Below, in pieces: positions 2,521 through 30,088 of a DNA stretch of 32,000 nucleotides (its first letter is position 1; each line of letters starts with the position of its first letter). A program made the translations under genes and the position numbers. The stretch is taken from positions 900,001 to 932,000 of the forward strand of contig NZ_LN831039.1 in the NCBI RefSeq assembly GCF_001457595.1, given 5' to 3'. The DNA is from Mycolicibacterium smegmatis. Its GTDB lineage: Bacteria > Actinomycetota > Actinomycetes > Mycobacteriales > Mycobacteriaceae. The notes under the pieces were generated by a model. The model saw only the letters and a program-made list of their open reading frames with translations. It searched no databases and had not been told where the DNA came from.

Positions 2521-2714
2521 GTCGAAGAGTGTGGACCAAAAGCCGAACCAGAGCAGACCAAATCGAGAATTTTTACGCTGCCGTTGCATGGCTCCCAGCT
2601 TCGAAACATGTTTGCAACAAACCCGCATATGTACAGGTAATTCCAAGTTGACCAACGAATCTGGGCGCGGTAACAATTGCCAGCGTCGCAGCACAACGTC
2701 GTCGGCGACATTCT

Positions 2715-2760
2715 CAGACCAGACCAAAAAATGGTCCGGTAATTTCCCTGTTCAGGGACG
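2715..2760. promoter_or_regulatory. Candidate operator palindromes in the divergent kinase/permease promoter region
   Basis: The 254-bp low-GC intergenic region (2521-2774) contains the inverted repeat GACCA-A5-TGGTC (2722-2736), preceded by a direct AGACC/AGACC repeat. It also has a perfect TCCCTG-TT-CAGGGA palindrome (2745-2758) 16 nt before the permease ATG. GACCA/TGGTC resembles HutC-subfamily half-sites. No experimental support. Confidence 0.3.
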
Positions 2761-2774
2761 GATTAGGACCCTCA

Positions 2775-4352: not shown

Positions 4353-4409
4353 CAGAGGGTGCGGGCCGAGGTTGTGACAACTGACATGGGTACGAAAGGG
4401 GTTGGGAAC

Positions 4410-8959: not shown

Positions 8960-8970
8960 CTCGTTTTGCG

Positions 8971-9030
8971 TCGAGTGTGCGTGTGGGGCGGGTTTTCAGC
9001 TGGCTTTCCGCCGTGAGCGCACGCTGGATT
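8971..9030. repeat. Solo degenerate copy of the 82-bp ackA/pknG intergenic repeat
   Basis: tcgagtgtgcgtgtggggcggg (8971-8992) is identical to the first 22 nt of the units at 9957, 10039 and 10121. The next 37 nt or so are about 65% identical by hand alignment. It overlaps the 3' end and stop of the DUF559-like ORF. Confidence 0.6.
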
Positions 9031-9865: not shown

Positions 9866-9956
9866 GGCCGCAGAATTGCAGCGCTTGCCGACACATCGCT
9901 GCGCGCGTGAGTGATTTATCCACAGCTCGGACGTTCATCCACAGGTGCACTATCTG

Positions 9957-10191
9957 TCGAGTGTGCGTGTGGGGCGGGCTTGGGCGTGTTTTTCCGCCGT
10001 GGGTGCACGGTCGACATATGGGTGGGCTGGGCGTCGCATCGAGTGTGCGTGTGGGGCGGGCTTGGGCGTGATTTTCCGCCTTGGGCGCACGGTCGACGTG
10101 TGGGTGGGCCGAGCATCGCATCGAGCGTGCGTGTGGGGCGGGCTTGGGCGTGTTTTTCCGCCATGAAAGCACGGTCGACGTGTGGGTTGAG

Positions 10192-10192
<1 letters not shown>
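9957..10192. repeat. Tandem 82-bp repeat, about 2.9 copies (MIRU-like intergenic repeat)
   Basis: Units at 9957-10038, 10039-10120 and 10121-~10192. Copies 1 and 2 differ at about 8 of 82 positions by hand alignment. Each unit has internal complementarity: tcgagYgtgc pairs with gcacggtcga, and GGCGG…CCGCC can pair. The unit length is not a multiple of 3. The third copy abuts the pknG stop codon. Confidence 0.9.
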
Positions 10193-13437
<3,245 letters not shown>

Positions 13438-13442
<5 letters not shown>

Positions 13443-13541
13443 CGGTGGTCTCTTCTTCGCGCAAGCGCTCATCAGTGCTGGTCTCTTCTTCGCGCAAGCG
13501 CTCATCAGTGCTTGTCTCTTCTTCGCGCAAGCGCTCATCAT
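13438..13541. repeat. 33-bp tandem repeat (about 3.2 copies) filling the glnX-glnH junction, in frame with glnH
   Basis: Plus-strand units are ctcatcagtgctKgtctcttcttcgcgcaagcg at 13501-13533 and 13468-13500, a 30-bp variant at 13438-13467, and a partial copy at 13534-13541. On the coding strand each unit reads ATG AGC GCT TGC GCG AAG AAG AGA CMA GCA CTG (MSACAKKR[Q/P]AL). Confidence 0.9.
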
Positions 13542-14857
13542 CGGTACTCACTCAGTCGTGGCCAGATCCCCAACGCCACCGCGACGGCCGCGGCCACGCT
13601 GAGCAGCGCGGCGCCCACGGTCGCGCCGGACAGCACGCGGCGGGCGTTGGCGATGTCGGTGCGCAATTGGTTACGGCTGTGCTCGATCGCCTTGGACAAC
13701 GCCTGGTCGAGCTTGTCGAACGCGGGCGTGGAGTCGTCCTCGCCGGTGCCCAGCGCCACCTGCGTGGCGGCCTGGTAGTTGCCGACGGCGATGTAGGCGT
13801 TGATGCGGTCGTCGGCCGCGCGCCAGCGGGTCAGTAGTTGCTCCGCACCCGCCAGATCGCTCTTGTCGATGCCGATGTCGCGGGCCAGGTAGTCCGAAAG
13901 CTGCTGCTGCATCACGTCGATGCGCTGATAGTAGGACTGCTTGCGCACGTTTTCGTCACCCCGGCGGATCAGCGCCAGCGTTTCGTCGGCGCGGGCCTGC
14001 TGCGCGGTGATGGCGAGTGTGGTGATGGTCTTCAGCGATTCGGCGGCGGTCTCTTTGGCGCTGCGACTGTCCGACGTCGAGATCACCAGCGCGGTCGACA
14101 CCCAGATGAGCATGATCAGCACGGCCAGGCCGCCCGCGACGAAGCCGATGTTGACCCGGCGCCTCGTGCGCCGCGCCAGCCACCGGTTGGCGAAGGCGCC
14201 GAACAACAGCGTCGCGAGCACCACCAGGATCACGGGCAGCGGGATCTGGGTGGACGCCGTGGTCTCGGCGTCCACGCGCGCCGAGGTCTCCTCGTAGAGG
14301 CGCTGCGCGTCGGGCAGGATCTGCGTCTGCATCATCGACGACGCCTCGGACAGGTACGACGAGCCGACGGGGTTGCCCGCGCGGTTATTGGTGCGCGCGG
14401 TTTCGATGAGGCCGGTGTAGACGGCCAGCCGCGCGTTGATCCGGCCCAGCAACTGGATCAGCGCCTCGTCGGTGAGCCCGCTGGAGGCGCGGGTGACGGC
14501 GACGGACGCGTCGACGATGGCCTGCTCGTAGCGCTGGCGCACGTCACGCGGTTCGGCGCCCGCGATGAACGCCGTCGCCGCGGCCGCGTCGGCCACCGAC
14601 AGCGTCGTGTACAGCCGGCCCGCCGCGAACGACAGGGGTTCGGTGTGGTCGAGCACCGTCGTCAGCGCCTGCTGACGGTCGTTGACCGTCGTCGACGTCG
14701 CGAACGCGCTCGCGATGACCAGCGCGGACAGCACCAGGCCGATGGTGAGGATGCGGCCGGGAGTGGTCCACAGGAACCACCAACGCGGGTGGGCAGGTGT
14801 GGTCGGCGACCGGGACGCGAGGGGTTCGGTCGAGGGATGTGCCAACTCCACAGTCAC
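13538..14857 (-). CDS. glnX: Integral membrane protein GlnX (Rv0412c-like)
   Basis: 439 aa with a GTG start at 14857. It has N-terminal (…RILTIGLVLSALVIASAF…), central and C-terminal hydrophobic helices flanking large helical extracytoplasmic regions. It sits first in the conserved glnX-glnH-pknG order. The exact start is uncertain. Confidence 0.85.
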   Translation of the reverse strand: MTVELAHPSTEPLASRSPTTPAHPRWWFLWTTPGRILTIGLVLSALVIASAFATSTTVNDRQQALTTVLDHTEPLSFAAGRLYTTLSVADAAAATAFIAGAEPRDVRQRYEQAIVDASVAVTRASSGLTDEALIQLLGRINARLAVYTGLIETARTNNRAGNPVGSSYLSEASSMMQTQILPDAQRLYEETSARVDAETTASTQIPLPVILVVLATLLFGAFANRWLARRTRRRVNIGFVAGGLAVLIMLIWVSTALVISTSDSRSAKETAAESLKTITTLAITAQQARADETLALIRRGDENVRKQSYYQRIDVMQQQLSDYLARDIGIDKSDLAGAEQLLTRWRAADDRINAYIAVGNYQAATQVALGTGEDDSTPAFDKLDQALSKAIEHSRNQLRTDIANARRVLSGATVGAALLSVAAAVAVALGIWPRLSEYR

Positions 14858-15013
14858 CTGCGCGCGAACCTCACTGCGTTTCGATGCTTACGGCTCTTCG
14901 TCCAAAGCAACTCTATAAAAGAATTCTAAGATTTTCCGGCACGCCTCGCCCTGGAATCACGGCCGGTTCAAAGTGGCCGAACTATTTAGCGTGTCGTTCC
15001 TTATCCTGTACGG
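14858..15013. promoter_or_regulatory. Divergent promoter region, glnX operon / mutT3
   Basis: 156-bp gap with an AT-rich core, ctctataaaagaattctaagattttcc (14911-14937), including the AGAATTCT palindrome (14920-14927). A TATAGA -10-like hexamer is present on the minus strand. No transcript data. Confidence 0.3.
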
Positions 15014-15517
15014 GTGCGTGGCGACGGAGATGGCTGGGTGATGTCGGAGAACGGCGCCCGGTTCTGGGGTCGCCACGGCGCGGCCGGTTTGCTGTTGCGG
15101 GCCCCGATGCCCGGCGGCGCGGCGGCGGTGCTGTTGCAGCACCGCGCGCCGTGGAGTCATCAGGGCGGAACGTGGGCGCTGCCCGGCGGTGCACGCGACA
15201 GTCATGAGACCCCTGAGCAGGCCGCGGTGCGCGAGGCGCACGAAGAGGCCGGCCTACCCGCCGAGCAACTGACGGTGCGCACGACGGTGGTGACCGCCGA
15301 GGTCGCAGGCATCGGCGGCACGCAGTGGACGTACACGACGGTGATCGCCGACGCGGCCGAACCCCTGCACACCGTGCCCAACCGGGAGAGCGCCGAGTTG
15401 CGCTGGGTCCTCGAGGATCAGGTCGCGGACCTGCCGCTGCATCCCGGGTTTGCCGCGAGTTGGCAGCGCCTACGTGAGGTGACCGCGACGATCCCGTTGC
15501 TCAACCGGCAGCGCTGA
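15014..15517 (+). CDS. mutT3: Nudix hydrolase (MutT3-like)
   Basis: 167 aa. Nudix box [24 protein letters not shown]. The N-terminus (V)RGDGDGWV matches my recollection of Rv0413. Its 3' end overlaps the convergent thiE by 17 bp. Confidence 0.85.
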
Positions 15518-16184
15518 TCGCGGCCTTGAGGTCCTCGGCGGCGGCCTTCGGGTCGTCGGCAGCGGTGATCGCGCGCACGACGACGACTCGCCGCGCGCCC
15601 GCGGCGAGCACCTCGGGCAGACGCTCCTGGTCGATGCCGCCGATCGCGAACCACGGCTTGCCGGGACTGTGCGCAGCGGTGGCCCGCACCAGATCCAGAC
15701 CCGGCGCGGGACGCCCCGGTTTGGTGGGTGTCGGCCAGCACGGCCCGACGCAGAAGTAGTCCACCCGCTCCTCGATGGCCACGGCCATCTGCGCGGCGTC
15801 ATGGGTCGAGCGTCCGATGACCGGCCTGCGGCCGATGATGCCGCGCGCGACATCCAGCGGCAGGTCGTCCTGGCCGAGATGCAGCACGTCGGCCCCGGCG
15901 GCCAGGGCGATATCGGCGCGATCGTTGACGGCCAGCAGAGCGCCGTGGCGGCGTGCGGCGTCGGCCAGGATCTCGAGCGCTTCGAGTTCCTGACGGGCCT
16001 CAAGCGGCCCGAACTGTTTCTCACCCGCGGAGCCCTTGTCACGCAGCTGGATCAGGTCGACGCCGCCGGCGAGTGCCGCGTCGGCGAATTCGGCCAGGTC
16101 ACCGCGTTCACGACGGGCGTCGGTGCACAGATACAACGAGGCGCGCTGCAGGCGCTGGACGGGAAGTTCGACGGCTTGGTCCAC
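15501..16184 (-). CDS. thiE: Thiamine-phosphate synthase
   Basis: ORF 15501..16265(-) trimmed to GTG 16184 ([30 protein letters not shown]…). It is collinear with ThiE (…IQLRDKG…, …[17 protein letters not shown]…). The longer extension would overlap the opposite-strand TPP riboswitch and has no ThiE-like sequence. The start is uncertain. Confidence 0.85.
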
Positions 16185-16221
16185 ACGGTGACGGTAGTCG
16201 GTGTTCTTTGAGTAATCTGGA

Positions 16222-16318
16222 CGGGCAACACGGGAGTCCCGGGAACGGGGACTGAGAGTGGGCATCGCCGGCCCTTACCGTCACACCTGATCCGGGTCAT
16301 GCCGGCGAAGGGAGCAGG
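16222..16318 (+). promoter_or_regulatory. TPP (THI-box) riboswitch upstream of thiO
   Basis: …cacgggagtcccgggaacggggaCTGAGAgtgggcatcgccggcccttaccgtcacACCTGATCCGGGTCATGCCGGCGAAGGGAgc… It contains the universally conserved CUGAGA and ACCUGAUC-N-GG-N-AAUGCC-GCG-AGGGA cores of Rfam RF00059. Its 3' end runs into the thiO SD (GGGAGCAGGA), 5 nt before ATG 16323. Confidence 0.8.
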
Positions 16319-16322
16319 ATCT

Positions 16323-17323
16323 ATGACACGTACGGTCGCCGTCATCGGCGGTGGCGTCATCGGGCTGTCCGTCGCGCGACGCGCAGCGCTCGACGGGTGG
16401 ACGGTGCGCCTGCACTGCACCACCGAGCGCGGCGCGTCGTGGGTGGCCGGCGGCATGCTGGCGCCCCACAGCGAAGGCTGGCCCGGTGAGGAGCAGTTGC
16501 TCCAGCTGGGGCTGGAATCGCTGCGGTTGTGGCACTCCGGGTTTCTCGACGGCCTGCCCGAGACGGTGGTGACCGCGCGGGAATCGCTCGTGGTGGCGGT
16601 GGACCGCGCCGACGCCGCCGATTTGCGCACCGTTGCCGAGTGGCTTGCCGCCCAGGGGCATCCGGTCGAGTTGACCACCGCCGCCCGTGATGTGGAACCT
16701 TTGCTGGCTCAAGGTATTCGGCACGGATTCCGCGCGACGACAGAGCTGGCGGTGGACAACCGCGGGGTGGTCGACGCGCTGGCCGCGCACTGCGAGCGGT
16801 TGGCCGTGCGGTGGGCGGGGCAGGTCGACGACCTCGCCGATGTCGACGCCGACGCCGTGGTGATCGCCAACGGCATCGACGCGCCGCGGCTGTGGCCGGA
16901 CCTGCCGGTGCGCCCGGTCAAGGGTGAGGTGCTGCGGCTGCGGTGGCGCAAGGGGTGTATGCCGGTGCCGCAGCGTGTGATCCGCGCCCGTGTGCACGGC
17001 AGGCAGGTGTACCTGGTGCCCCGCGCCGACGGCGTCGTGGTCGGTGCCACGCAGTACGAGCACGGCCGCGACACCGCACCGGTGGTCAGCGGCGTGCGGG
17101 ATCTGCTGGAGGACGCCTGCGCGGTGATGCCCGCGCTGGGGGAGTACGAACTGGCCGAGATCGCGGCCGGGCTGCGGCCGATGACGCCGGACGGTTTGCC
17201 CGTCGTGGAACGTGTCGACGAGCGCACCGTGGTCGCCGTCGGGCACGGACGGAACGGATTTCTGTTGGCGCCGTGGACCGCTGAGCGGGTCGCGGCAGAA
17301 CTCGAAGTGGGTGTGGGAGCGAA

Positions 17324-19049: not shown

Positions 19050-19970
19050 ATGGTGGCAATGATCGAACTCGCCGGGCTGACAAAGCTCTACGGAACCCAC
19101 CGCGCCGTCGACGACCTCAGCTTCACCGTCGAACCGGGCGTGGTCACCGGCTTCCTCGGGCCCAACGGCGCGGGCAAGACCACCACCATGCGGCTGATCC
19201 TCGGCCTGGATCACCCCACGTCCGGCACCGCGACCATCGACGGCAAGCGCTACCGCGAGCTCAAGAATCCGCTGCGCACCGTCGGCGCCCTGCTCGACGC
19301 GCGGCAGGCGCATCCCAACCGCTCGGCCCGCAGCCACCTGCGGTGGATCGCCGCGGCCAACCGCATTCCGGCGTCCCGCGTGGACGAGGTGCTGGAGATG
19401 GTCGGGCTGGCCTCGGCCGCCGACCGCAACGCCGGGGCGCTGTCGCTGGGGATGAGCCAGCGGCTGGGCATCGCCGCGGCGCTGCTGGGAGATCCGCCGG
19501 TGCTGTTGTTCGACGAACCGGTCAACGGGCTGGATCCCGAGGGCATCCACTGGGTACGCACGCTGATGCGCGAGCTGGCCGGTGAAGGTCGCACGGTGTT
19601 CGTGTCGAGCCATCTGCTGGCCGAGATGGCGAATACCGCCGACCGCCTGGTGGTGATCGGGCAGGGCAAGCTGATCGCGTCGACCACGGTCACGGAGTTC
19701 GTCAACGGCTCCGACGCCGACACCGTGCGGGTGCGCAGCCCGCAGTTGGAGACGCTGCGCGACGTGCTCTCGGACGCCGGACTCGACGTCGTCACCGAAC
19801 CCGACGGCGGTGCCCTCAACGTGCACGGGGTGGCGATCGAGGTGATCGGCGATCTCGCGGCCCGCAACGCCATCACACTGCACGAGTTGAGCCGCAGGCA
19901 GGCGTCGCTGGAGGAGGCGTACTTGAAGCTCACCGATGATGCCGTCGACTACCGGGCGGTGCAGCCGTGA
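19050..19970 (+). CDS. ABC transporter ATP-binding protein (ABC-2/DrrA-like)
   Basis: ORF 18597..19970 trimmed to ATG 19050 (MVAMIELAGLTKLYG…). Walker A GPNGAGKTT, signature LSLGMSQRL, Walker B VLLFDEP. The upstream extension overlaps the SGNH gene. Confidence 0.9.
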   Translation: MVAMIELAGLTKLYGTHRAVDDLSFTVEPGVVTGFLGPNGAGKTTTMRLILGLDHPTSGTATIDGKRYRELKNPLRTVGALLDARQAHPNRSARSHLRWIAAANRIPASRVDEVLEMVGLASAADRNAGALSLGMSQRLGIAAALLGDPPVLLFDEPVNGLDPEGIHWVRTLMRELAGEGRTVFVSSHLLAEMANTADRLVVIGQGKLIASTTVTEFVNGSDADTVRVRSPQLETLRDVLSDAGLDVVTEPDGGALNVHGVAIEVIGDLAARNAITLHELSRRQASLEEAYLKLTDDAVDYRAVQP

Positions 19971-20725
19971 GCGCGCTTGCAGCGCTGGACGCCGAGCGCA
20001 TCAAACTCTCCACGACGCGCTCGCCGCTGTGGTCGGTGGTCGGTGCCGCCGTGCTGAGCTTCGCCATCGCGGCGCTGCAGGGCTGGAGCGCCTATGGCTA
20101 CACGCCGTTGCCACCAGGCAAGGCCGCGCTGGGCGTCGCGGTGTTCGGGGTTCCGGTGCTCATGGTGCTGGCGTCGATGACCATGACGGGCGAGTACCGC
20201 ACCGGATTGATCCGCACGACGTTCATGGCCACACCGAACCGGTCCGTGGTGCTCGCCGCGAAAGCCATTGTGTGCGCCGCGTTTTCCTCGGTCGCGGCGA
20301 TCGTCATGGTGCTGGGCGCGGTGCTGGTGGCCCGGTTGTTCACCGATCCGCTGATCGCGGTGGATCTCTCGCCGACCAATCCCGCGACCTGGCAGGTGGC
20401 CGGGAGCTTCGCGTTGTATGCCGCGTTGGCCGCGATCCTCGGTGTGGCCGTCGGCGCGTTGGTGCGGTTCTCGGCGGGCGCCGTCGCGGTGCTGCTGTTG
20501 TGGCCGCTGGTCGCCGAGCCGCTGCTGGCCAACATGCCCGGCAACGGCGCCCAAATCGGGCCGTGGCTGCCGTTCGTGCACATGTACCGGTTCCTCGACG
20601 TCGACTGGTTGTTCCCGAGTTACGCCATGCCGTGGGGTCCGGTGGGGTCGCTGATCTACTTCGTGGTGCTGGTCGTGGTGGTCTTCGTCGCTGCCGTCGT
20701 GGCGCTCAACCGGCGGGATGCGTAG
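19967..20725 (+). CDS. ABC-2 type transporter permease
   Basis: 252 aa with about six hydrophobic helices. The GTG start overlaps the ATPase stop (GTGA). Confidence 0.8.
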   Translation: MSALAALDAERIKLSTTRSPLWSVVGAAVLSFAIAALQGWSAYGYTPLPPGKAALGVAVFGVPVLMVLASMTMTGEYRTGLIRTTFMATPNRSVVLAAKAIVCAAFSSVAAIVMVLGAVLVARLFTDPLIAVDLSPTNPATWQVAGSFALYAALAAILGVAVGALVRFSAGAVAVLLLWPLVAEPLLANMPGNGAQIGPWLPFVHMYRFLDVDWLFPSYAMPWGPVGSLIYFVVLVVVVFVAAVVALNRRDA

Positions 20726-20793
20726 GTCGTCCGGTTGTTGCTGAACCGCCTGCCTCTCGGCCGCTAAGCTGCTGGATAGCTTGACGGAGTCAC

Positions 20794-23166
20794 GTGTCGA
20801 GGGGGCCATCTGTGAGTGTGCTCGACGGGTTTTATTCGACGCTGTCGAAGGCTAGGCAGACGTTCGGTGAGGGACCGCCGAGTGACGGTGCGGAGTTCGA
20901 CCAGAGCTCGCAGCTTCTGCAAATGAAGGCGAATGTGGAGGCGGCGGCTCCCGACGATCGCTGGCAGGGGTCGGGTGCGAATGCCTACGCGGCGGCGAAC
21001 AGGGAGCACGCCGCGGTCTACGAGAAGCTCGCAGATCTGGACCGCAGGATGGCAGCCGAGGTCAAGAATGCTGCCGGTGTGGTGTCCAGCGGGCGCCAAG
21101 GTCTGGACTCGACGGCAAACTGGGTCAACAGCGCCGTTCAATCCCTGCCGCCCACGTCGGAACAGGACCGGGAACGCAAGCTTCTGCCGATCGCCCGTGA
21201 AGGCATCAGCCAGGTCAACGGGATCGTGCAGTCGGCCACCGCCCAGATGGTGGAGATCAAGGGTCGCATCACCGGTCTCAAGGGCGAGTACGAGGCACTG
21301 AGCAACCAAAAGTTCGCGCCGGGCGGCGACAAGTCCGAGGAGGACAAGAACGAGAAAGACGACGACGTCCAGAAGGTGACGGGCGACGACGCCGACAAAG
21401 ACGAGCGCGACGGGAAGGCGGACGGCGAAGCCTTGGCGGAACAGGCGAACCTGCCCTCGGCGCATCGTGATCCGGCGGTGCTGGATGAGGTTGCCGCGAA
21501 TCTCCCGGAGTCTCCCCTCACGGCCGAGCAGATGGCCGCTCTCGCAGCCGGTGAAGAAGTCAACGACGTCCCGAAGGAGACGCTCGACTATTACCGGGAC
21601 TTCTACAATGCCGCGGGCAAGGACGGCCTGCTTCTGCTCGACCGGCACCTGGAGTCGCAGGAGGCGGGCGGCGATGCCGAGGTAGGAGCCCAACGAGACA
21701 GGCTCGCCAACGGATTGACACTTACCAGCAACGAGAAGGTGGTTGAACTCAACCCGGACGGTTCGGTCGCGGCACGCGGTGGCTACGACCAGTTGCCGGC
21801 TGACCTGCGCGAAATGCTCGAGGTACGTCGCGCGGATCCGACCTATCCGGGTTGGGAGAATCTTGGACCTACCGATGCGAAGAACCAGCATGTCGCTGAT
21901 GTGGTGCAGTTCAGTGAGCTGATGGGTGAAGCCAACCCGGGTTACCAGCCCGGGACGAAGCTGGGCACCGAGATGTACCTGAAGTCGGCCGACATGGTCG
22001 AGAACTCCACCGGTGGTTGGGGAATGACCGATACACCACCGGAAGCCTATGAGCGCGCGGCGAGTTCGTTGGCCGAGATCGCGGGCCGCAACAACGAGTC
22101 GTCGTATCAGATCTGGTCCGGAGACGGAATGCCCGAGGGATATGACCCTAAGGAAACGGTCCGCACATTGATCGGCCACGACTGGTCGCAGAGCGGGGGT
22201 GGGGGAAGCGGTGCGGCGACCCTGCTGGACTGGATGACCGAGGACACCCAACGTCCGATCGGCGACCCCATCGGTGACCGCGCGCGGCAGGCGTTCGTCG
22301 ACCTTCCGGACTACCTGGCGCCCAGCGACACCGACCCGGTATGGGACAGCCAGCGCGACGCATTCGCTCGCAATCCTGCGATCTCTACAGAGATGAGTCA
22401 ACTTCTGGCTTCACACACTGGTGCGCTGGTGGCGCCCGGCCAGCAGAACGGCTTTGTCGACACCAGGATCGATCCGGAAGGCTATCCGCGGATCAGCGCG
22501 GACGACGCCAACCGCCTGTTGGAACTCGGCTCCTACTCCGAGGAGGGGAGGACGACACTGACCACTGCGGCCGAACCTGCCCGCATCGAAGAGTTGCAGA
22601 CAGCCATGGGGAATCACCCGGGCAACCTGGCCGACTATGTGGCCAATAGCCCCGCAGGCGCGTTGTCAGGGCGCATCGACCACGCGATGACGGAAGCCAT
22701 CACCAACCAGAACGAGGTGCTCCAGCAGGACGTCGTGGCGAAGGACGCGGTCTATCGCGCGAAAGTCGCCGGTGCCGAGCTAGCAGGCTCGCTCGCCGAC
22801 GAACTGACACCGAAGATTCCTCGTGCCGGTGAGGTCATCGGCTATACCGGGCTGGACCCGGGCGCAACTGTCGAGAACGCCATCAAGCACTTCATCGAGG
22901 CCCCCGAGTACAAAGCGCTCACGGTGCCCGACGACGACATCTTGATGGCGGGGTCGAACGTACAGGCGCAGCAGACGGTGCTGGAAGCGGCGATGAAGGC
23001 TGGTGAGCTGCCCGACGAGTTGAAGCGCGGCGATTCACCCGTACAGATCTCCGAATTGGGGCCGGACAGTCGGGCGTACCAGATCGTCCAGAAGTACCTC
23101 ATCGAGCGTGGCTTGGCACAGTATGTCACCGACTATGCGCAGAGCTACTCAATCGCCCTGAAATAA
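20794..23166 (+). CDS. Large protein with an EspA/EspE-like (WxG) N-terminal domain, putative type VII secretion substrate/effector
   Basis: 790 aa. GTG 20794 has GGAG 4 nt upstream. Residues ~55-100, DDRWQGSGANAYAAANREHAAVYEKLADLDRRMAAEV, match the W-x-G…N-R-x-H…ELADLDR core I recall from EspA (Rv3616c) and EspE. An acidic low-complexity linker follows (GGDKSEEDKNEKDDDVQKVTGDDADKDERDGKADGE, about 21320-21430). The remaining ~580 aa are a helical-looking domain of unknown function. Confidence 0.8.
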   Translation: MSRGPSVSVLDGFYSTLSKARQTFGEGPPSDGAEFDQSSQLLQMKANVEAAAPDDRWQGSGANAYAAANREHAAVYEKLADLDRRMAAEVKNAAGVVSSGRQGLDSTANWVNSAVQSLPPTSEQDRERKLLPIAREGISQVNGIVQSATAQMVEIKGRITGLKGEYEALSNQKFAPGGDKSEEDKNEKDDDVQKVTGDDADKDERDGKADGEALAEQANLPSAHRDPAVLDEVAANLPESPLTAEQMAALAAGEEVNDVPKETLDYYRDFYNAAGKDGLLLLDRHLESQEAGGDAEVGAQRDRLANGLTLTSNEKVVELNPDGSVAARGGYDQLPADLREMLEVRRADPTYPGWENLGPTDAKNQHVADVVQFSELMGEANPGYQPGTKLGTEMYLKSADMVENSTGGWGMTDTPPEAYERAASSLAEIAGRNNESSYQIWSGDGMPEGYDPKETVRTLIGHDWSQSGGGGSGAATLLDWMTEDTQRPIGDPIGDRARQAFVDLPDYLAPSDTDPVWDSQRDAFARNPAISTEMSQLLASHTGALVAPGQQNGFVDTRIDPEGYPRISADDANRLLELGSYSEEGRTTLTTAAEPARIEELQTAMGNHPGNLADYVANSPAGALSGRIDHAMTEAITNQNEVLQQDVVAKDAVYRAKVAGAELAGSLADELTPKIPRAGEVIGYTGLDPGATVENAIKHFIEAPEYKALTVPDDDILMAGSNVQAQQTVLEAAMKAGELPDELKRGDSPVQISELGPDSRAYQIVQKYLIERGLAQYVTDYAQSYSIALK

Positions 23167-23187
23167 CTTGAGTACAAGGGAGACCTG

Positions 23188-23913
23188 TTGATAGAACCGA
23201 CGCGACGGCGATCGTCTGTGGATGCGTCAGGCGCGTTGACCCGTATGAGCGTCGTCATACTGGCTGCGGTCGCGGTTGCCTTCTTCGGCGGATGCGGTAC
23301 CGACACTGAATTCTCGACACCGACGACGTCGGCTGCGGTCGATTTCCCCTATCCGCCGTTTGAAATTCGGACCGACATTGCGGTCCCGCTTCCGCCTCGT
23401 CTCAGAGACGCTGCCCAGTTCGCGCTGGACATGTCGGTCGACGACCGCCGGAAGAACGATCCCAACGACGACGAAGCTGACCGACGGTTCCGAAGCCAGA
23501 TCGCGCCGGAGGCCGACATCGCGGACCTTCCGCCAGGCCCCGATACTGCTATCGGAGAGACGGGGGGCGCGCTTCACCGTGCGGTGGGTGCTCGGGGTCT
23601 ACCCGATGACACGGTCGAAGTGACGATTTGTCAGTACGACACCCCGGGTCTCTACACGAAGTTGAAGGACGGACGGATTGTCAGCTCCGACATTCCGATG
23701 AGTGTCCAACGTCCTCTGGTGCAGTGGACCGGTCGGCCCGCAGCTGATGGCACCACTCCTGCTGGCCCTCGGTGGCTTTGGGTTGGCGAGACCGCTTCGT
23801 ACAACCTGCCTGCCCAACAAGTTGCTGAGCTTTGCGATCCGTTCAAACCCGAACCGTTCATCCAGAAGATGCCCGACCCGACGACAGCAGCATCCGCGAC
23901 GCCGAGCGGATAG
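23188..23913 (+). CDS. Hypothetical secreted/lipoprotein-like protein
   Basis: 241 aa. TTG 23188 has GGGAG 5 nt upstream; the alternative ATG is at 23245. The N-terminus has a basic region (TRRRSS), a hydrophobic core VVILAAVAVAFFGG and then Cys (a non-canonical lipobox). I recognise no family. It starts 21 nt after the 790-aa gene. Confidence 0.6.
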   Translation: MIEPTRRRSSVDASGALTRMSVVILAAVAVAFFGGCGTDTEFSTPTTSAAVDFPYPPFEIRTDIAVPLPPRLRDAAQFALDMSVDDRRKNDPNDDEADRRFRSQIAPEADIADLPPGPDTAIGETGGALHRAVGARGLPDDTVEVTICQYDTPGLYTKLKDGRIVSSDIPMSVQRPLVQWTGRPAADGTTPAGPRWLWVGETASYNLPAQQVAELCDPFKPEPFIQKMPDPTTAASATPSG

Positions 23914-24271
23914 CGTAGTCAAGTTAGATTCCGTCGAGCATCTAGAGAAATGTCAGCCTTTGGAAGGCCAGCTAAGTACGTCACCGGTTACGGCCAGAGC
24001 TATTCGTTCGTACTGAAGGGTTAGCAGTGGAAACGCTACCGAATCCGATTCTGTGTTGAGCATGACCAATTGGCGAAAGAGCAGCGTGCTCGGGCCGAAT
24101 CCGGTGCCGGGTATACCGGTGCCACCGCCGACAAGGCCCCTGTCGCGCCGTCGACCACTGGTTCCGAGAACACCACTGCATCGCCCGACACCGCGCCGGT
24201 GCGTCCGCCGACCAGAGTTCCCACTGATTCGTCAATTCTGTTGTGACCGTTGAGTTCCTCGACCTGAAGGT

Positions 24272-24502
24272 GTGTTGATGAGTTTGCCTCCCCCGCCGGA
24301 TTCGTTTGGTTCTCAGCCGCCGAATGGTGGTGGGGTTCCGCCGCGGGGTGGGGGGCCTGGTGGTCAGGGATCGTATGGTGCGCCGCAGCCGGGTCAGCAG
24401 CCGTATGGGCAGTATCCGGGTCAGCCTGGTCAACCGCAGTGGGGTCCGCCGCCGCAGCAGTGGGGAGCTGCGCCGCCACCGCCGAACAGGGGGGCGCGGT
24501 AA
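24272..24502 (+). CDS. ORF fragment: Pro/Gly/Gln-rich N-terminal region of the disrupted membrane protein (would be called a small hypothetical protein)
   Basis: Track ORF of 76 aa. The likely ATG is 24278, with GAAGG 7 nt upstream. It ends at TAA 24500-24502, just after a G6 run (24489-24494). Removing one G fuses it in frame to the TM segment. Confidence 0.4.
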   Translation: MLMSLPPPPDSFGSQPPNGGGVPPRGGGPGGQGSYGAPQPGQQPYGQYPGQPGQPQWGPPPQQWGAAPPPPNRGAR

Positions 24503-24594
24503 ATGGGTGCTGATCGGCTTGGCGTTAGTCGCGGTGATCGCGTTGAGCATCGCGGGCACTGCGGTGGTTCTGAAATCAGACTCTGGCGACGGTA

Positions 24595-25023
24595 ATGGTT
24601 CGACGCCCTCGGCGCAGCGATTCAGAATTCGCAAGCGCCAACGACACGGGCCCGGCGAACCTCATCACCGAGGATCCGACGTGTGGGGCGTGGGGGCGTA
24701 TTTCCCGCGAGTTAAGCACCGCGACTAAGGCCGTGGATTGGGCTGAGCGCGATGACTCCGTTCCTGCAGATGCGTGGGACCCGGATCTGCGTGCAGCGTA
24801 CGAGGCTGCTGGGCGGGCGATGAGTAATGCGGCAGAAGGTGTGCGGGCGCTAGTTAGTGCGACGCCCCACCGGGTTATGCGAGAATTATACGGCCAATTC
24901 AATACTTTCACGAATGGCGTCGTGGAAAAAACTCCTATTTACACTGCGGCTGATTCTGAGTTAGCCACCATGTCCACTACAATTGCCTCCGCGTTATCGT
25001 CAATATGTTCTGCCGTCCAATAA
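24595..25023 (+). CDS. ORF fragment: first extracytoplasmic domain of the disrupted membrane protein (would be called a hypothetical protein)
   Basis: Track ORF of 142 aa. It has no signal peptide or TM of its own. The sequence from SEFASANDTGP…EDPTC onward looks like the ectodomain of mycobacterial Pro-rich membrane proteins. It ends at an in-frame TAA, after which the same frame continues. Confidence 0.4.
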   Translation: MVRRPRRSDSEFASANDTGPANLITEDPTCGAWGRISRELSTATKAVDWAERDDSVPADAWDPDLRAAYEAAGRAMSNAAEGVRALVSATPHRVMRELYGQFNTFTNGVVEKTPIYTAADSELATMSTTIASALSSICSAVQ

Positions 25024-25187
25024 CAAGTTGCAGCGGCAATCGCGCCGATGCTGCCTCCCTTGGATGGTACGTCAGGATCTGGCGGGGCTAACGCGGCCGC
25101 TGACCAAGAACCATTTTTAGACAGTTCCAGTTCGATCTGTTCAGACTGGAAAGCAGAGGTTGAGGATTCTAACAAAAACTTAGCAGA

Positions 25188-25538
25188 TTGCAAGGAATCG
25201 ACCCCGCAATTCCAGCAAGTGCTTGGACTCCAGAGCAGCGCTCCATAAACGAAGCGCTAAGGCCGGTGCTTGTGGAAGCTGCTAACAATTTTGAAACCAT
25301 TGGGAAACGTGCGAACGGTAACATTAATGATTTCTTGGCGGAACCTGCCACCTTAGACCAAAATCTAAAGACAGTAATTCACGGCTCGAAGTCTCCAGAG
25401 GCCGTTAGCGACATCCAAACCGCAATACCGAGGGACAACGCGGCGCCAGGTTTGGCTCCAGTGGTTTCTGATTCTGGCCAAAAAAATGCGATTCATGGGA
25501 CTCGCGAAGTTGAATCCAGTTCTGCACCAGAACCTTAG
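25188..25538 (+). CDS. ORF fragment: second repeat domain of the disrupted membrane protein (would be called a hypothetical protein)
   Basis: Track ORF of 116 aa starting at TTG. The region is AT-rich (about 44% GC by hand count over 25261-25380). Its sequence parallels the second half of the 24595-25023 domain. Confidence 0.35.
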   Translation: MQGIDPAIPASAWTPEQRSINEALRPVLVEAANNFETIGKRANGNINDFLAEPATLDQNLKTVIHGSKSPEAVSDIQTAIPRDNAAPGLAPVVSDSGQKNAIHGTREVESSSAPEP

Positions 25539-25606
25539 GTAGTTGAACCAAAGGTGCCAGTCGAACCCGTAAAGGACTTCGTTCCTGTGGCACCTGGACC
25601 CATCAG

Positions 25607-27037
25607 GTGCCTCATGCACAACAGCCGGGAGCTCCTGCGAAACCGGCGATTTCCGGTTTGCCAGGTTCCGCTCAGGCACCCGCCACGCCGAGCGGGCCAG
25701 GCATCGGTGGATCCCCCTCCGCTCCTGCCATGCCTTCAGCCCCCTCCGCTGGCGCAAGCCCACTGAGCAGCAGCAGCGGACTGGCCTCGTCCGGAACGAG
25801 CGGGGCCGAGCGAGCAGCAGACGCCACGGCCGCCGCCAGCGCTGCCGGCCCTCGTGCGCCGGTCGATCCGCTGCAACAGTTCGCGCAGTCGTTCGCGAAC
25901 TCGTCGAATCCGTCGATCCAGCCGGCATCCACGTACTCGCCGCCGATGTCGTTGGAGCCGCTCGACACCACGCCGAATCCGAGCACGCCCGCCGCCGCGA
26001 CGGTGACGCCGAGCAGCAGCCAGGCGCCGGCGGCGCCGCCACCCGCAGCGCCAACAGGCGGCGGCGGCACGCCGACCGGCATGGGCGGCGGCGGAATGGG
26101 TGGTGGCATGGGCGCGATGCCGCTGGGGCCCCGCCGACTCCGCCACCAGCGGCGCCCACCCCGGGTTGCACCCACGGCGGCCCCACCGCCCCCACCGGTG
26201 GCGCCGACGCAGGCTGGTGGCGCACAGGTCGCGCCGATCCCGGTATCGGCGGCTCGAGCCGAACGCGAAGCCGCCGCCGCGGCACGCCGGTCTGGCGTAG
26301 AGCCGTTGGAGATCGCGCGACGCGTCGCCGCGGTGTTGAACGCCGGGCCGCGTGAGCCGAAGTTCATGTGGCTGACCGGTTTGACGACCGACGGAACGAT
26401 CGTCGTTGCCAACAACTATGGCTTGGGCTACATCTCGCCGTGGGTGAAGCTGCCGGCGCCGGTGAAGTTCGCCTTCGCCGATGAGTCGATTCCGATTGCG
26501 GAGCGGGCGAAGTGGGTGACATTCCCGATCGCGGCGCTGCAAGGTTGGGCCGAGTCGCACCACACGGCGTTGCGGGCGGTGATCGCCATGGAGGACCAGT
26601 TCGAGGGATTCGACTCTGGTTGTGCCGAGATCAAGCTGCAGCCCGACGACATCCCCACCGCCGGGAAGATGGAGGGCCGCTCGCGGTTGGAGGTGCTCGC
26701 CCCTGACGTCGCGATACGGTTGGCGAGTGTTCCGGACACTGCGCTGGCCGACCTGTTGCCCCCACCGCCGGCAGACCCGGAGCCACCGGAGGACCGGCGA
26801 ATGAACCTGCTGATGGAGGTCTTCCGGCCTCTGCTGAGCAGCGACTCTGGGCGAATTCCGTTGCAGCTCAAGGCTATGGCCGAGTTCGCCGATCACATGC
26901 AGAAAATGGCGCTGCACAGTGCCTACACCGCGGCCGATGCGGAGGCCCTGCGTATCGACACCGAGGACGCCATCTACTGGCAGCACGTGGGTGTGCTGTC
27001 ACGCGACGCGCTGGGAACCATGCCCGAAGGCTCCTAG
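25607..27037 (+). CDS. Pro/Ala/Gly-rich protein with an EspK-like C-terminal domain (the 5' end may be truncated or frameshifted)
   Basis: 476 aa from GTG 25607, with no SD. The first ~210 aa are low complexity (PAPS…GGGMGGGMG…PPPPP). The C-terminal ~260 aa read IPVSAARAEREAAAAARR…LEIARRVAAVLNAG…LTTDGTIVVANNYGLGYISP…ALRAVIA…LQPDDIPTAGKMEGRSRLEVLAP…LADLLPPPP…IYWQHVG. This is collinear with the C-terminal domain of ESX-1 protein EspK (Rv3879c) as I recall it. There is no WxG-like N-terminal domain. Confidence 0.7.
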   Translation: MPHAQQPGAPAKPAISGLPGSAQAPATPSGPGIGGSPSAPAMPSAPSAGASPLSSSSGLASSGTSGAERAADATAAASAAGPRAPVDPLQQFAQSFANSSNPSIQPASTYSPPMSLEPLDTTPNPSTPAAATVTPSSSQAPAAPPPAAPTGGGGTPTGMGGGGMGGGMGAMPLGPRRLRHQRRPPRVAPTAAPPPPPVAPTQAGGAQVAPIPVSAARAEREAAAAARRSGVEPLEIARRVAAVLNAGPREPKFMWLTGLTTDGTIVVANNYGLGYISPWVKLPAPVKFAFADESIPIAERAKWVTFPIAALQGWAESHHTALRAVIAMEDQFEGFDSGCAEIKLQPDDIPTAGKMEGRSRLEVLAPDVAIRLASVPDTALADLLPPPPADPEPPEDRRMNLLMEVFRPLLSSDSGRIPLQLKAMAEFADHMQKMALHSAYTAADAEALRIDTEDAIYWQHVGVLSRDALGTMPEGS

Positions 27038-27064
27038 TCGAGTGAGCGGCACCGCTCGAGAAAA
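27038..27064 (+). terminator. Possible stem-loop terminator after the EspK-like ORF
   Basis: GAGCGG-CA-CCGCTC hairpin (27044-27057) lies 7 nt after the TAG stop. It is followed by GAGAAAAT with no U-tract, so at best it is an I-shaped mycobacterial-type terminator. Confidence 0.25.
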
Positions 27065-27137: not shown

Positions 27138-28640
27138 ATGCGACGTAGTTTGACGGGGGCCGTGCTGGGCACGGTGGTGCTGGCCGGGGCGTTGGCCGGG
27201 TGTGACGCGAAGACCGAACTGCAGGCGCCGCAGGCGCAGCCGACGCCGGAGGGCGTATCGGCCGCGGCTGTGGAGTTCGCGAATCAGCTGCGCGAACGCG
27301 TCACGATCGACGCGATGATGGGCCACCTGGAGAAGCTGCAGGAGATCGCCGACAACAACGACGGCAACCGCGCGCTGGGCACCCCGGGTTACGACGCCAG
27401 CGTGGACTATGTCGTCAGCGCGCTACGCGACAAGGGTTTCGACGTGGAGACCCCGGAGTTCGAGGTGCGGTTGCCCTACGCGGAGGACCCGCAGGTGACG
27501 GTCCGCGGTCAGGCGGTCACCGCGAAGCCACTGGAGTTCACGATAGGCACCGAGGGCGTCTCGGGCCCGCTGGTGCCGGCGAAGGTGGAGGACACCCCGG
27601 GCTGTGAGGCCGGCGACTACGACGGACTCAACGTGGCCGGCGCGGTGGTGCTGGTGGATCGCGGCGCGTGCGCGTTCTCGATCAAGCAGGCCGTGGCCGC
27701 CGAGCGCGGCGCGGTCGCGATGATCGTCGCCAACAACACCGACGGCGACGAGATGGGCGGCACGCTGGGCCGGCGCACCGACGTCAAGATCCCGGTGGTC
27801 AGTGTCACCAAGGCCGAGGGCGCCCGGCTCCGCGCGAACCCTGGCCCCACGACCATCAGCCTCGTTGCGGGTGTGCGGGTCGAGAAGACGCGCAACGTGA
27901 TCGCCCAGACCGACACCGGATCGTCGTCGGACGTCGTGATGGTCGGCGCGCACCTCGACAGCGTCGCCGAGGGCCCCGGCATCAACGACAACGGCTCCGG
28001 CGTGGCCGCGGTGCTGGAGACCGCGCTGCAACTCGGCAGCAGCCCCGACGTGAACTACGCCGTGCGGTTCGGCTTCTGGGGCGCGGAGGAGGAGGGCCTG
28101 CTGGGCTCCACCAACTACGTCGAATCGCTGAACGAAGACCAGCTCAAAGACATTGCGCTGTATCTGAACTTCGACATGCTCGGTTCGCCGAACCCCGGCT
28201 ACTTCACCTATGACGGTGACCAGTCGGCCCCGCCCGAGCCGCGGGTGCCGCGCGTGCCCGAGGGCTCCGCGGGTATCGAGCGCACCCTGGCCGCCTACCT
28301 GGCCGACGCCGGGAAGATGCCGCAGGACACCAGCTTTGACGGCCGTTCGGACTACGACGCGTTCACCCTCGCCGGCATCCCTGCGGGCGGACTGTTCTCC
28401 GGCGCGGAGGAGAAGATGTCCCCGGAGGAGGCCGAGGAGTGGGGCGGCGCGGCCGACGAACCGTTCGACCCGAATTATCACAAGAACACCGATACCCTCG
28501 AACACGTGGACCGGGACGCTCTGCAGATCCACGGCGAAGGCGTGGCCTTCACCGTCGGCCTGTACTCACAAGATCAGCGGGGACGCAACGGGATACCGGT
28601 CCGCGACGACCGCACCCGCCATCAGATCAGCCCACAGTGA
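27138..28640 (+). CDS. lpqL: M28-family aminopeptidase lipoprotein with PA domain (LpqL-like), copy 1
   Basis: ORF 26919..28640 trimmed to ATG 27138; the alternative is GTG 27129. It starts MRRSLTGAVLGTVVLAGALAGC (LAGC lipobox). PA insert: GCEAGDYDGLNVAGAVVLVDRGACAF. M28 zinc ligands: GAHLDSV…[32 protein letters not shown]. 500 aa, the length I recall for Rv0418. Confidence 0.9.
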   Translation: MRRSLTGAVLGTVVLAGALAGCDAKTELQAPQAQPTPEGVSAAAVEFANQLRERVTIDAMMGHLEKLQEIADNNDGNRALGTPGYDASVDYVVSALRDKGFDVETPEFEVRLPYAEDPQVTVRGQAVTAKPLEFTIGTEGVSGPLVPAKVEDTPGCEAGDYDGLNVAGAVVLVDRGACAFSIKQAVAAERGAVAMIVANNTDGDEMGGTLGRRTDVKIPVVSVTKAEGARLRANPGPTTISLVAGVRVEKTRNVIAQTDTGSSSDVVMVGAHLDSVAEGPGINDNGSGVAAVLETALQLGSSPDVNYAVRFGFWGAEEEGLLGSTNYVESLNEDQLKDIALYLNFDMLGSPNPGYFTYDGDQSAPPEPRVPRVPEGSAGIERTLAAYLADAGKMPQDTSFDGRSDYDAFTLAGIPAGGLFSGAEEKMSPEEAEEWGGAADEPFDPNYHKNTDTLEHVDRDALQIHGEGVAFTVGLYSQDQRGRNGIPVRDDRTRHQISPQ

Positions 28641-30088
28641 CGCGGCGCCGGCTGGCCGCCGCCCTGGCCACCGCAGCCGCTGTCGCGGTGACGGCCGTGG
28701 CCTGTTCGCAGGAACCGGCCGCGCCGTCGAACGAGTTGCCGCACGACCTCGCGCAGGCGGTCACGGTCGACGCCATGTTCGGGCACCTGCGCAAGCTCCA
28801 GGAGATCGCCGACGCGAACGGCGGCAACCGCGCGCAGGGCACACCGGGTTACGACGCCAGTCTCGACTATGTCGCAGGTTTGTTGCGCGACAAAGGCTTC
28901 GAGGTCGAGACGCCCGAGTTCGAGCGACTGGGCACCGTGGGCGGCGGAAACCCGTCGCTGACCGTGTCGAGTCAGCGCTTCTCGGCGGAGCAGGCCTCGC
29001 TACTGGTACCGACCCCCGACGGTGGCCTCAACGCGCCGACGCTGCGGCCCGGGAAACCGGCGGGCTGCGCGGCGTCGGACTACAAGGGTGTCACGGTCAA
29101 AGGCGCCATCTCGGTGGTGGATGACACCGGGTGCTCGATCGTCGTCAAGCAGAACGTCGCCCTCGCCGAAGGCGCGGTCGGGTTGCTGGTGGTCAGTACC
29201 AGCCGCCCCAGCCCGGCCGGTTTGTTCACCTCCGGCTACTACGGCCAACTGAAAGTCCCGGTCGGGGTGATCGACAAGACCGCCGACGCCGCGCTGCGAC
29301 GCACTACGAGGTCCGTGCGGCTGGTGCTGGACAACAAGGCGCAGATGGTCACGTCACGGAACTTGTTGGCGCAGACGAAAACCGGATCGACCGACAATGT
29401 GGTGGTGGTCGGGGCGCACCTGGACAGCATCGCCGGTGGCCCCGGCATCAACGACAACGGTTCCGGCGTGTCCGCGATACTGGAAACCGCGCTGCAACTC
29501 GGCGGCTCACCGGCGATCAACAACGCGGTGCGGTTCGCGTTCTGGGGAGCCGAGGAGACCGGGCTGGAAGGGTCGTCGCAGTACATCCGTAAGCTCTCGC
29601 CCGAGCAACTCGACGAGCTGGCGCTCTACCTGAACTTCGACATGCTGGGCTCGACGAACACCGGCTACTTCACCTACGACGGCGACCAGTCGGCGCAGGC
29701 CGGCGACCCCAAGCCGGTGCCGGAGGGTTCGGCGGGCGTCGAGCGCACCCTCGCCGGATTCCTGAACCTGCAGGGTGTGCGTCCGGCGGACATGCCGTTG
29801 AGCGCCAACACCGACTACAGCGCGTTCATGAACGCCGGCGTGCCGATCGGCGGCGCCACCACCGGGTCGTCGCAACGTAAGACCGAGGTGCAGGCGCGGT
29901 TGTGGGGCGGCAAGTCCGGGGTCGCGTTCGACCCGAACTACCACACCCGCCGCGACAACATCGACAACGTCGACGCGCACGCGTTGTCGGTCATGGGGCC
30001 CGCCGTCGCCTTCGCGGTGGGCACCTACGCGCTGTCCACCGACGGGCCCAACGGCGTCCCAGGACGTGACCAGAGAAAGCGCAGCTGA
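28637..30088 (+). CDS. M28-family aminopeptidase (lipo)protein with PA domain, tandem paralogue, copy 2
   Basis: ORF 28439..30088 trimmed to GTG 28637, which overlaps the copy-1 stop (GTGA). It starts (M)[22 protein letters not shown]. Same motif set (GAHLDSI…[32 protein letters not shown]). Confidence 0.9.

Follow-up and report, generated by a model that had tools for sequence, protein, structure and literature searches.

The chromosome of Mycolicibacterium smegmatis carries, between a gene for an ABC-2 type permease and lpqL, a block of about 6.3 kb (20760-27040) that is made up of two parts. The block lies in a stretch of 32,000 nt (contig NZ_LN831039.1, positions 900,001 to 932,000 of the forward strand), which is referred to as the window and from whose first letter all positions are counted. 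[quoted passage not shown] The two genes form a conserved module, which is found at other chromosomal sites in other species. The right part (24278-27037) is, as judged from its sequence, a decayed duplicate of the esx1 gene pair Msmeg0070-Msmeg0071, since paralogs of Msmeg0070 and of EspK (Msmeg0071) follow each other in the same order. Our preferred interpretation, which we hold with moderate confidence, is that of a satellite ESX-1-type locus: the effector would be secreted and its C-terminal domain (CTD) bound outside the membrane by the cognate lipoprotein, while the Msmeg0070/0071 duplicate beside it has decayed. The original prediction, which was made from the sequence alone, was supported in part, but had overlooked both the effector-lipoprotein pairing and the Msmeg0070/Msmeg0071 identity of the decayed genes. 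The left part contains the following features:

20812-23166, plus strand: intact T7SS substrate-like gene; 784 amino acids (aa) with an EspA_EspE domain, an acidic linker, a TPR_23 domain and a family-specific CTD.
20863-21108, plus strand: EspA_EspE (WXG-like) N-terminal domain (PF18879, residues 24-105, E 5.1e-24).
21514-22233, plus strand: TPR_23 domain with EspA-like TPR repeats (PF23275, residues 241-480, E 2e-49).
22216-23163, plus strand: CTD of about 310 aa (residues 475-790), all alpha-helical (AlphaFold2 model with a predicted local distance difference test score, pLDDT, of 83 and a predicted template modeling score, pTM, of 0.83).
23188-23913, plus strand: cognate lipoprotein (241 aa) with its lipobox Cys36 encoded at 23293-23295; signal peptide and Cys are present throughout the family.

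The effector reading frame opens with a GTG at 20794, which gives 790 aa. The start at 20812, resulting in 784 aa, is likely the correct one, because homologs and public gene calls begin at residue 7. An EspA/EspE-like WxG N-terminus had been predicted for the 790-aa protein and was confirmed: the EspA_EspE profile was matched with 84.9 bits (Pfam cutoff 27), and the helical hairpin contains the motif W-Q-G at residues 51-53 (784-aa numbering). The domain inventory given with that prediction was correct for the N-terminal domain but lacked TPR_23 and the third domain, the CTD. TPR_23 scored 169 bits and covered profile positions 4-234 of 234; it is the best-conserved region of the effector among orthologs, with a mean identity of 71%. 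In NCBI, homologs bear either the name "EspA/EspE family type VII secretion system effector" or the name "TPR repeat region-containing protein". An NCBIfam scan yielded nothing useful.

The ESX-1 substrates EspA (Rv3616c, espACD operon) and EspE (Rv3864) have the same EspA_EspE and TPR_23 domains, and the effector gene shares with espACD a position distant from the core genes of esx1. ESX-1 substrate loci of this orphan type are already known, espACD being one of them. The effector is about twice as long as EspA or EspE, with an acidic linker and an extra helical CTD of 310 aa, and a lipoprotein gene is found downstream in place of the espC/espF-type partner of EspA/EspE. Unlike EspA/EspE of M. 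tuberculosis and M. marinum, the effector family occurs in saprophytic fast-growers and Nocardia, and secretion is putative here.

An exhaustive phmmer search of 1.84 billion representative proteins retrieved the CTD in only 15 clusters. In 12 of them the match is at the C-terminus of proteins of 770-850 aa; the other three are proteins of 80, 114 and 530 aa. The CTD model had no fold match among PDB and viral structures (best E 0.2). Since it is found in so few clusters, mostly at one position and in one architecture, the CTD appears from these searches to be a family-specific module and not a shuffled toxin domain. The other parts of the effector occur in further combinations. The first ~185 residues share 56-66% identity with the N-termini of alpha/beta hydrolase (PF06259) proteins and of proteins of about 455 aa, and in Nocardia and some Mycobacterium the TPR and CTD unit stands behind another, weakly WXG100-like N-terminus. 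The paralogs in M. goodii and M. smegmatis have N-terminus and TPR in common and diverge after residue ~490, while the M. goodii ortholog is 92% identical. The exact 784-aa product was indexed in 58 blocks of a public assembly collection, from which 23 contigs were read, three complete M. smegmatis genomes among them.

The lipoprotein gene begins 22 bp downstream of the effector gene. It had been predicted as a lipoprotein-like open reading frame (ORF), which agrees with the signal peptide and lipobox Cys conserved in the whole family. The family has only 29 detectable members, at least 9 of which share a contig with an effector ortholog, one of these being Nocardia-like with a different effector N-terminus. 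In M. goodii, M. porcinum and Mycobacterium sp. WMMD1722 the effector ortholog is in each case directly followed by a lipoprotein homolog of 225-243 aa. The pair is at the same site in M. goodii as in M. smegmatis; in M. porcinum and sp. WMMD1722 it is near topA/holB and not at thiG/lpqL. Altogether, it is kept across at least ten species and Nocardia, and in M. goodii and sp. 21AC1 the lipoprotein is present in two tandem copies. The original prediction of one large intact gene beside decayed neighbors therefore held for the Msmeg0070 and EspK paralogs but not for the lipoprotein, which is a conserved partner of the effector.

For 11 loci, pairwise lipoprotein identity was compared to the identity of the effector domains. 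The Spearman coefficient was 0.75 for the CTD, 0.57 for the N-terminus and 0.52 for TPR, so that the divergence of the lipoprotein tracks that of the CTD best; as the correlation is confounded by shared phylogeny, this is suggestive only. The AlphaFold2 model of the lipoprotein (pLDDT 76) tentatively showed a weak resemblance to NTF2/VirB8-like cones (E 0.005 or worse).

Two observations were made next to the pair in M. porcinum. Downstream of the pair, a second, shorter EspA_EspE protein of 455 aa and an ORF of 130 aa are encoded (13391-15267 of the extracted loci), and one assembly has a prophage-like block (portal, terminase, capsid) just past this region.

The module was compared between M. 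smegmatis and M. goodii. The ratio of nonsynonymous to synonymous substitution rates (dN/dS) was 0.083 for the effector, 0.12 for its CTD alone and 0.23 for the lipoprotein. The flanking genes had values of 0.06-0.11, and the synonymous rate dS was similar in block and flanks. Because of the low dN/dS and the flank-like dS, effector and lipoprotein appear to be maintained by purifying selection and to be vertically inherited in the smegmatis-goodii clade.

The block had originally been considered "horizontally acquired or fast-evolving", and a recent horizontal transfer of a genomic island into M. smegmatis would indeed fit several features of the locus. GC content and GC content at third codon positions (GC3) are below those of the flanks, the module is located at different chromosomal sites in other species, and insertion sequence (IS) elements occur in the locus. 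This explanation is nevertheless highly improbable, and its recent time scale is already contradicted. M. goodii has the same genes at the same site and in the same order at 89% nucleotide identity and with dS comparable to the flanks. No tRNA, integrase or flanking or direct repeats were found at the island ends by tRNA and repeat scans. The module had no match in phage collections, and the plasmid collections contained only one match, a non-mobilizable, chromosome-like Nocardia record. With these collections empty except for this record, a prophage-borne polymorphic toxin cassette was also ruled out. Since the site is shared with M. goodii, dS resembles that of the flanks, and dN/dS of the effector is 0.08, the sequence comparison argues for an old block that is neither recently transferred nor fast-evolving. 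An ancient acquisition before the smegmatis-goodii ancestor is possible. At the genus level the block is accessory, as supported by the orthologous pairs near topA/holB elsewhere.

The right part of the block contains the following features:

24278-25406, plus strand: pseudogene, paralog of Msmeg0070 (PF27060); Pro-rich N-terminus, one transmembrane (TM) segment and two repeats of the Cys-containing extracytoplasmic domain.
24489-24494, plus strand: G6 homopolymer, site of the first frameshift; G8 in strain mc2155 rejoins the frames of the Pro-rich N-terminus and the TM segment.
24882-25448, no strand: low-GC segment of 567 bp, part of the pseudogene, swapped for an IS of 2.26 kb in strains mc2155 and Jucho.
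25021-25023, plus strand: in-frame stop in the pseudogene; the other frameshifts are near 24610-24616 and between 25155 and 25209.
25607-27037, plus strand: EspK (Msmeg0071) paralog, 476 aa, lacking the N-terminal ~260 aa; Pro/Ala-rich linker and EspK_C domain (26303-27004).

A multiply disrupted gene for a Pro-rich membrane protein had been recognized here, and comparison to intact homologs revealed three frameshifts and one in-frame stop, so the frame of about 380 aa is not intact. When Msmeg0070 of mc2155 (Figure S2 of PMC9040860) was used in tblastn against the window, it matched with E 2e-54 in three frames with 36-44% identity. Pro-rich N-terminus, TM segment and both repeats are all covered by the match, and PF27060 ("Mycobact_ESX1_assoc") is recorded on a 142-aa ORF of the pseudogene. 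An intact homolog of 377 aa from [M.] fortunisiensis, in which a Pro-rich N-terminus is combined with a single TM segment and two domain repeats, has 43% identity and aligns to 24501-24599 (frame +1), 24616-25155 (frame +2, running across the stop at 25021) and 25209-25334 (frame +1).

The esx1 locus of M. wolinskyi has the order eccD1, a 282-aa espJ-like gene, a PF27060 gene (404 aa), EspK (741 aa) and EspB, and the same order is found in M. lutetiense. Because of the match in esx1 position and architecture and of the tblastn result, we identified the broken gene from its sequence as a paralog of Msmeg0070. In the esx1 locus of M. wolinskyi we also noticed a 406-aa "Conj_beta_prop_9" gene between espB and espL (15267-16487 of the extracted locus), which adjoins extra EspA_EspE and EspC-like genes.

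Msmeg0070 determines self-identity in distributive conjugal transfer (mBio 2022, PMC9040860), and the same study noted homologs of Msmeg0069/0070 outside esx1 in some species. An intact satellite in [M.] fortunisiensis, consisting of a paralog with EspA/E and TPR domains, an espJ-like gene, an Msmeg0070-like gene and EspK_C, fits this remark. In a comparison with Msmeg0069-0071, the esx1 mid region, the pseudogene shows homology to Msmeg0070 over its full length, and an EspK-type gene comes next in the same order and orientation. The copy in the island is an extra one, lacks a 0069/espJ-like gene and has the three frameshifts and the stop; its EspK copy is without the N-terminal third and has no espB alongside.

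The original prediction of an ORF with an EspK-like C-terminal domain was borne out: residues 233-466 of the 476-aa ORF matched the EspK C-terminal domain of PDB 8ako_B with E 3.4e-64. Locally, Pfam gave a weak DUF5632 match, while the precomputed Pfam assignment is PF27215 (EspK_C). The ORF is colinear with the C-terminal two-thirds of EspK homologs of about 740 aa. The helical N-terminal domain of EspK, which comprises about 150-260 aa ahead of the Pro-rich linker, was absent from the window in tblastn with 11 full-length homologs, of which the C-terminal part alone matched. The region upstream of the ORF was ruled out as the missing N-terminus, as tblastn assigned it to the second repeat of the Msmeg0070-like pseudogene. 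No EspB_PE/PPE gene was found in the window; the gene after the EspK-like ORF is lpqL. By its position and conserved C-terminal third, we infer that the ORF is an N-terminally truncated Msmeg0071/EspK paralog. EspK (Rv3879c) is the chaperone of EspB (PDB 8AKO; PMC9811218). The C-terminal domain aligns over its whole length, but the ORF in the island lacks the N-terminal domain and is not beside espB; it may be a remnant which, if expressed, could provide only the substrate-binding half. The decayed right part is probably no longer functional. At 26120-26170, GPPPTAPPAAPV of the homologs is replaced by GPRRLRHQRRPPRV in the ORF; for about 12 codons, the matching peptide is encoded in another frame, which points to a compensated pair of frameshifts in the Pro-rich linker.

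The locus differs between strains. A deletion of 1 bp at 21815 divides the effector of mc2155 and Jucho (CP080274) into 369 and 421 aa, whereas it is intact in other M. smegmatis isolates including Nishi. The same two strains have G8 instead of G6 at 24489-24494, by which one junction of the pseudogene is restored. The IS that replaces the low-GC segment in both of them encodes an ISL3-family transposase and a PRiA4_ORF3 protein and is IS1096-like; it further truncates the pseudogene in mc2155. CP089215.1 carries the IS as a simple insertion near 25450, Nishi (CP080273) carries it near 23940, and the locus of CP082846.1 is free of IS. M. goodii has an IS21 element and a 130-bp remnant of the espK-like 3' end, and has lost the Msmeg0070 paralog. 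Sequencing errors as the cause of the frameshifts were ruled out, since the frameshifts are common to independent assemblies.

Such damage would be expected if the whole island were a decaying, functionless leftover of an esx1 locus duplicated in part, in which the intact effector ORF survives for the time being. Half of the four genes are broken, two strains carry a frameshifted effector, IS elements have inserted at three different positions among M. smegmatis strains, the GC content is reduced, and M. goodii has lost the Msmeg0070 paralog together with almost all of the EspK paralog. We consider this very unlikely for the island as a whole, because effector and lipoprotein have evolved since the smegmatis-goodii split under constraints like those of the housekeeping neighbors and the pair has been retained in at least ten species and in Nocardia.

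For the intact left part (20812-23913) we propose a functional module of an EspA/EspE-family T7SS substrate and a Sec-exported lipoprotein. The N-terminal domain of the effector would pair with an EspC/EspF-like partner that is encoded elsewhere, and this would target the effector to ESX-1. Beyond the cytoplasmic membrane, the CTD would be bound by the lipoprotein at the outer face of that membrane. The role of the lipoprotein would most likely be immunity-like, namely protection from the cell's own effector or that of a sibling; docking or anchoring is an alternative role. A link to ESX-1 is supported by the gene order in M. wolinskyi esx1, by the family member beside mycP1 in M. lutetiense and by the match to Msmeg0070. 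A mycobacterial precedent for a T7SS effector with a downstream lipoprotein as immunity protein is EatA/EatI (PMC13444075).

Several observations weigh against this proposal. The N-terminal domain of the effector has no YxxxD/E motif, and neither the called genes nor an ORF scan of the island contained an EspC/EspF-type (PF10824), WXG100 or Tap-like partner gene. Structure comparisons revealed no enzymatic or toxin fold for the CTD, which, unlike classical polymorphic toxin domains, is not shuffled onto other delivery domains. The fold matches of the lipoprotein are not significant, and its covariation with the CTD is affected by common descent as described above. The effector is dispensable in culture, since it is frameshifted in mc2155 and Jucho without known phenotype. 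Secretion, toxicity and binding of the effector are putative only.

The paralogous effector loci bear on the function of the pair. Paralogous effectors are followed by lipoproteins of other families at another M. smegmatis locus and in M. lutetiense, where an 823-aa family member is encoded just outside mycP1. Both loci also carry an EspC-like gene. The CTDs of the paralogs are still homologous, with 25-38% identity. The M. smegmatis paralog locus of CP102342.1 additionally contains an orphan CTD gene of 322 aa (11212-12180 of the extracted locus) downstream of the paralogous effector and its lipoprotein; its product is homologous to the TPR_23 end and the CTD and has its own signal/lipobox-like N-terminus. 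The M. smegmatis paralog site is beside a gene for an AAA_22 ATPase and shows strain-dependent effector alleles of 752 aa or 762 aa (8001-10289 of the extracted loci), each with its own version of the downstream lipoprotein (59% identity), and in some strains also IS elements.

The EatA/EatI/TapA1-2 system consists of an arabinanase toxin secreted by ESX-4 and a lipoprotein inhibitor (Benedict et al., Nat Commun 2026, PMC13444075). In that study, toxins with extracellular targets co-occurred with lipoprotein immunities, and 47% of the candidates had no predicted function. Like EatA, the effector is a large protein of the T7SS type in which a helical targeting domain at the N-terminus is combined with a payload at the C-terminus, and as in EatA/EatI a small lipoprotein gene is immediately downstream and the chromosomal sites vary. 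The pair could therefore be an antibacterial toxin-immunity pair of this kind, in which the CTD would damage membrane or envelope of neighboring mycobacteria, possibly after export by ESX-4, and the lipoprotein would confer immunity. The conserved downstream lipoprotein with its tandem paralogs, the orphan CTD and the joint divergence of CTD and lipoprotein are in line with this, and the fusion of the N-terminal domain to alpha/beta hydrolases (PF06259) suggests a modular delivery domain.

We regard such a function as possible but rather unlikely. Unlike in Eat loci, upstream tap/Lap-like genes are missing, with the effector starting 87 bp past the permease stop (20725 to 20812), and the N-terminus is of the EspA_EspE (T7SSa) type and not LXG-like. 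The payload is without a recognizable enzyme or toxin fold and confined to one architecture, and the neighboring genes suggest ESX-1 rather than ESX-4. In addition, a competition toxin would be expected to be under diversifying selection, but one identical allele is present in many M. smegmatis assemblies and dN/dS of the CTD is low. The locus was also compared to LXG polymorphic toxins of Bacillota (T7SSb). There, too, a helical N-terminal domain is reused with different C-terminal parts, as seen here with TPR plus CTD or alpha/beta hydrolase, and in the effector family, likewise, a partner gene lies downstream, partner paralogs occur in tandem and C-terminal modules exist as orphans. It differs from LXG toxins by another secretion-domain family, by paralog CTDs that are homologous to each other and do not occur on other delivery systems, and by a toxicity that is putative.

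A further explanation is that the effector is a non-toxic surface or structural substrate of ESX-1 like M. marinum EspE, with the lipoprotein as envelope anchor or assembly partner and a role in cell-cell contact, conjugation or kin recognition. It is consistent with the membership in the EspA/EspE family and the full EspA-like TPR domain, with a physical association, here as well as in [M.] fortunisiensis, with paralogs of Msmeg0070/0071, and with the family member adjoining esx1 in M. lutetiense. Purifying selection, low polymorphism and the weak VirB8/NTF2-like matches of the lipoprotein model would also agree. We regard this explanation, too, as possible but rather unlikely, as the tight one-to-one pairing and the tandem duplication of the lipoprotein suit immunity better than anchoring, and the association may be historical only, with the neighboring mid-region paralogs dead. 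A role of this type is wholly putative for this effector class.

If effector and lipoprotein of the proposed satellite ESX-1-type locus act as a secreted protein and its envelope partner, the pair would be an ESX-1-type counterpart of the ESX-4 Eat toxins and a concrete ESX-1 cargo beyond EsxAB and EspB in saprophytic mycobacteria. For both ESX-1 biology and distributive conjugal transfer, M. smegmatis serves as the main model. The effector is frameshifted and the locus truncated by an IS in mc2155, while natural isolates are intact; therefore, work with mc2155 would miss any phenotype. The decayed Msmeg0070/0071 copy shows that, in M. smegmatis itself, duplication has placed self-identity genes outside esx1, which bears on the evolution of the hypervariable mid region. 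A more far-reaching idea, which we consider improbable, is that EspA/EspE-TPR effectors, their cognate lipoproteins and Msmeg0070/EspK-type identity genes together make up movable "identity and antagonism" cassettes of environmental mycobacteria. In this case, kin recognition that depends on ESX-1 and precedes conjugation would be mechanistically coupled to an exchange of effectors that only kin with the matching lipoprotein tolerate. The M. smegmatis locus would represent a half-decayed example, and the allele state of the effector would contribute to strain compatibility.

The original prediction had also called the module undescribed. This did not hold for the protein families, which are already catalogued in Pfam (PF18879, PF23275, PF27215, PF27060), with an effector name assigned by NCBI. 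In the literature searched, we did not find a description of EspA_EspE, TPR_23 and CTD with a dedicated lipoprotein as a movable pair, nor of the Msmeg0070/0071 remnants at thiG-lpqL or the effector frameshift in mc2155.

The window is 100% identical to M. smegmatis CP082846.1 over 21,189 bp, 99.7% identical to mc2155 (CP009494.1, at about 0.88 Mb) and about 89% identical at the nucleotide level to M. goodii X7B. To the left of the island the gene order is pta-ackA-pknG-glnH-glnX-mutT3-thiE-thiO-thiS-thiG-GDSL lipase-ABC ATPase-ABC-2 permease. To the right are two M28 peptidases (lpqL/lpqM-like), a chalcone synthase-like gene and ICMT. The thiG gene of M. tuberculosis (Rv0417) is directly followed by lpqL (Rv0418). 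The border genes, for which Pfam domains were read from identical genes in other M. smegmatis assemblies, are:

19967-20725, plus strand: ABC-2 type permease, left border, outside the island; weak Pfam match to ABC2_membrane_4, GC3 91%.
27138-28640, plus strand: LpqL-like M28 aminopeptidase lipoprotein, right border, outside the island; Pfam PA and Peptidase_M28, GC3 89%.

According to the Pfam annotations of identical or syntenic loci, the 32-kb window contains no Ecc, MycP, EspG, PE/PPE or Esx genes. This agrees with the predicted absence of EccB-E, MycP, EspG, PE/PPE and EsxAB and, together with the Esp-family profile matches, with ESX-related content far from any ESX core gene.

The deviating composition of the block between permease and lpqL was likewise confirmed, with a GC content of 63.1% in the island compared to 68.1% in the rest of the window. 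The 6.3-kb stretch of lowest GC in the window (62.7%) starts at 19501 and overlaps the island almost entirely. GC3 amounted to 78% in the effector and 79% in the EspK-like ORF, to 66% in the lipoprotein and to 57% and 44% in the two ORFs of the pseudogene, compared to 89-91% in the flanking genes. A GC trough near 44% had been claimed; the trough exists, but the computed 200-bp minimum is 46.5% (25101-25300). Scans for promoters and terminators were no better than chance.

Some minor observations were made outside the island. A second low-GC stretch at 2501-4500 (58-64%, with a 200-bp minimum of 50% at 2551) covers the start of an amino-acid permease gene (2775-4352) as well as its body. On the minus strand, a 289-aa ORF between ackA and pknG (8996-9865) has a sub-threshold match to REase_MTES_1575 (28 bits, cutoff 38). 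ARAGORN reported a "tRNA-???" with a four-base anticodon (gcca) at 13287-13379 on the plus strand, by its coordinates near glnH/glnX, which is probably a false positive. The lpqL/lpqM-like M28 aminopeptidase paralogs are arranged in tandem (27138-28640 and 28637-30088) with overlapping stop and start codons, and internal segments of the two genes are 75-80% identical at the nucleotide level.

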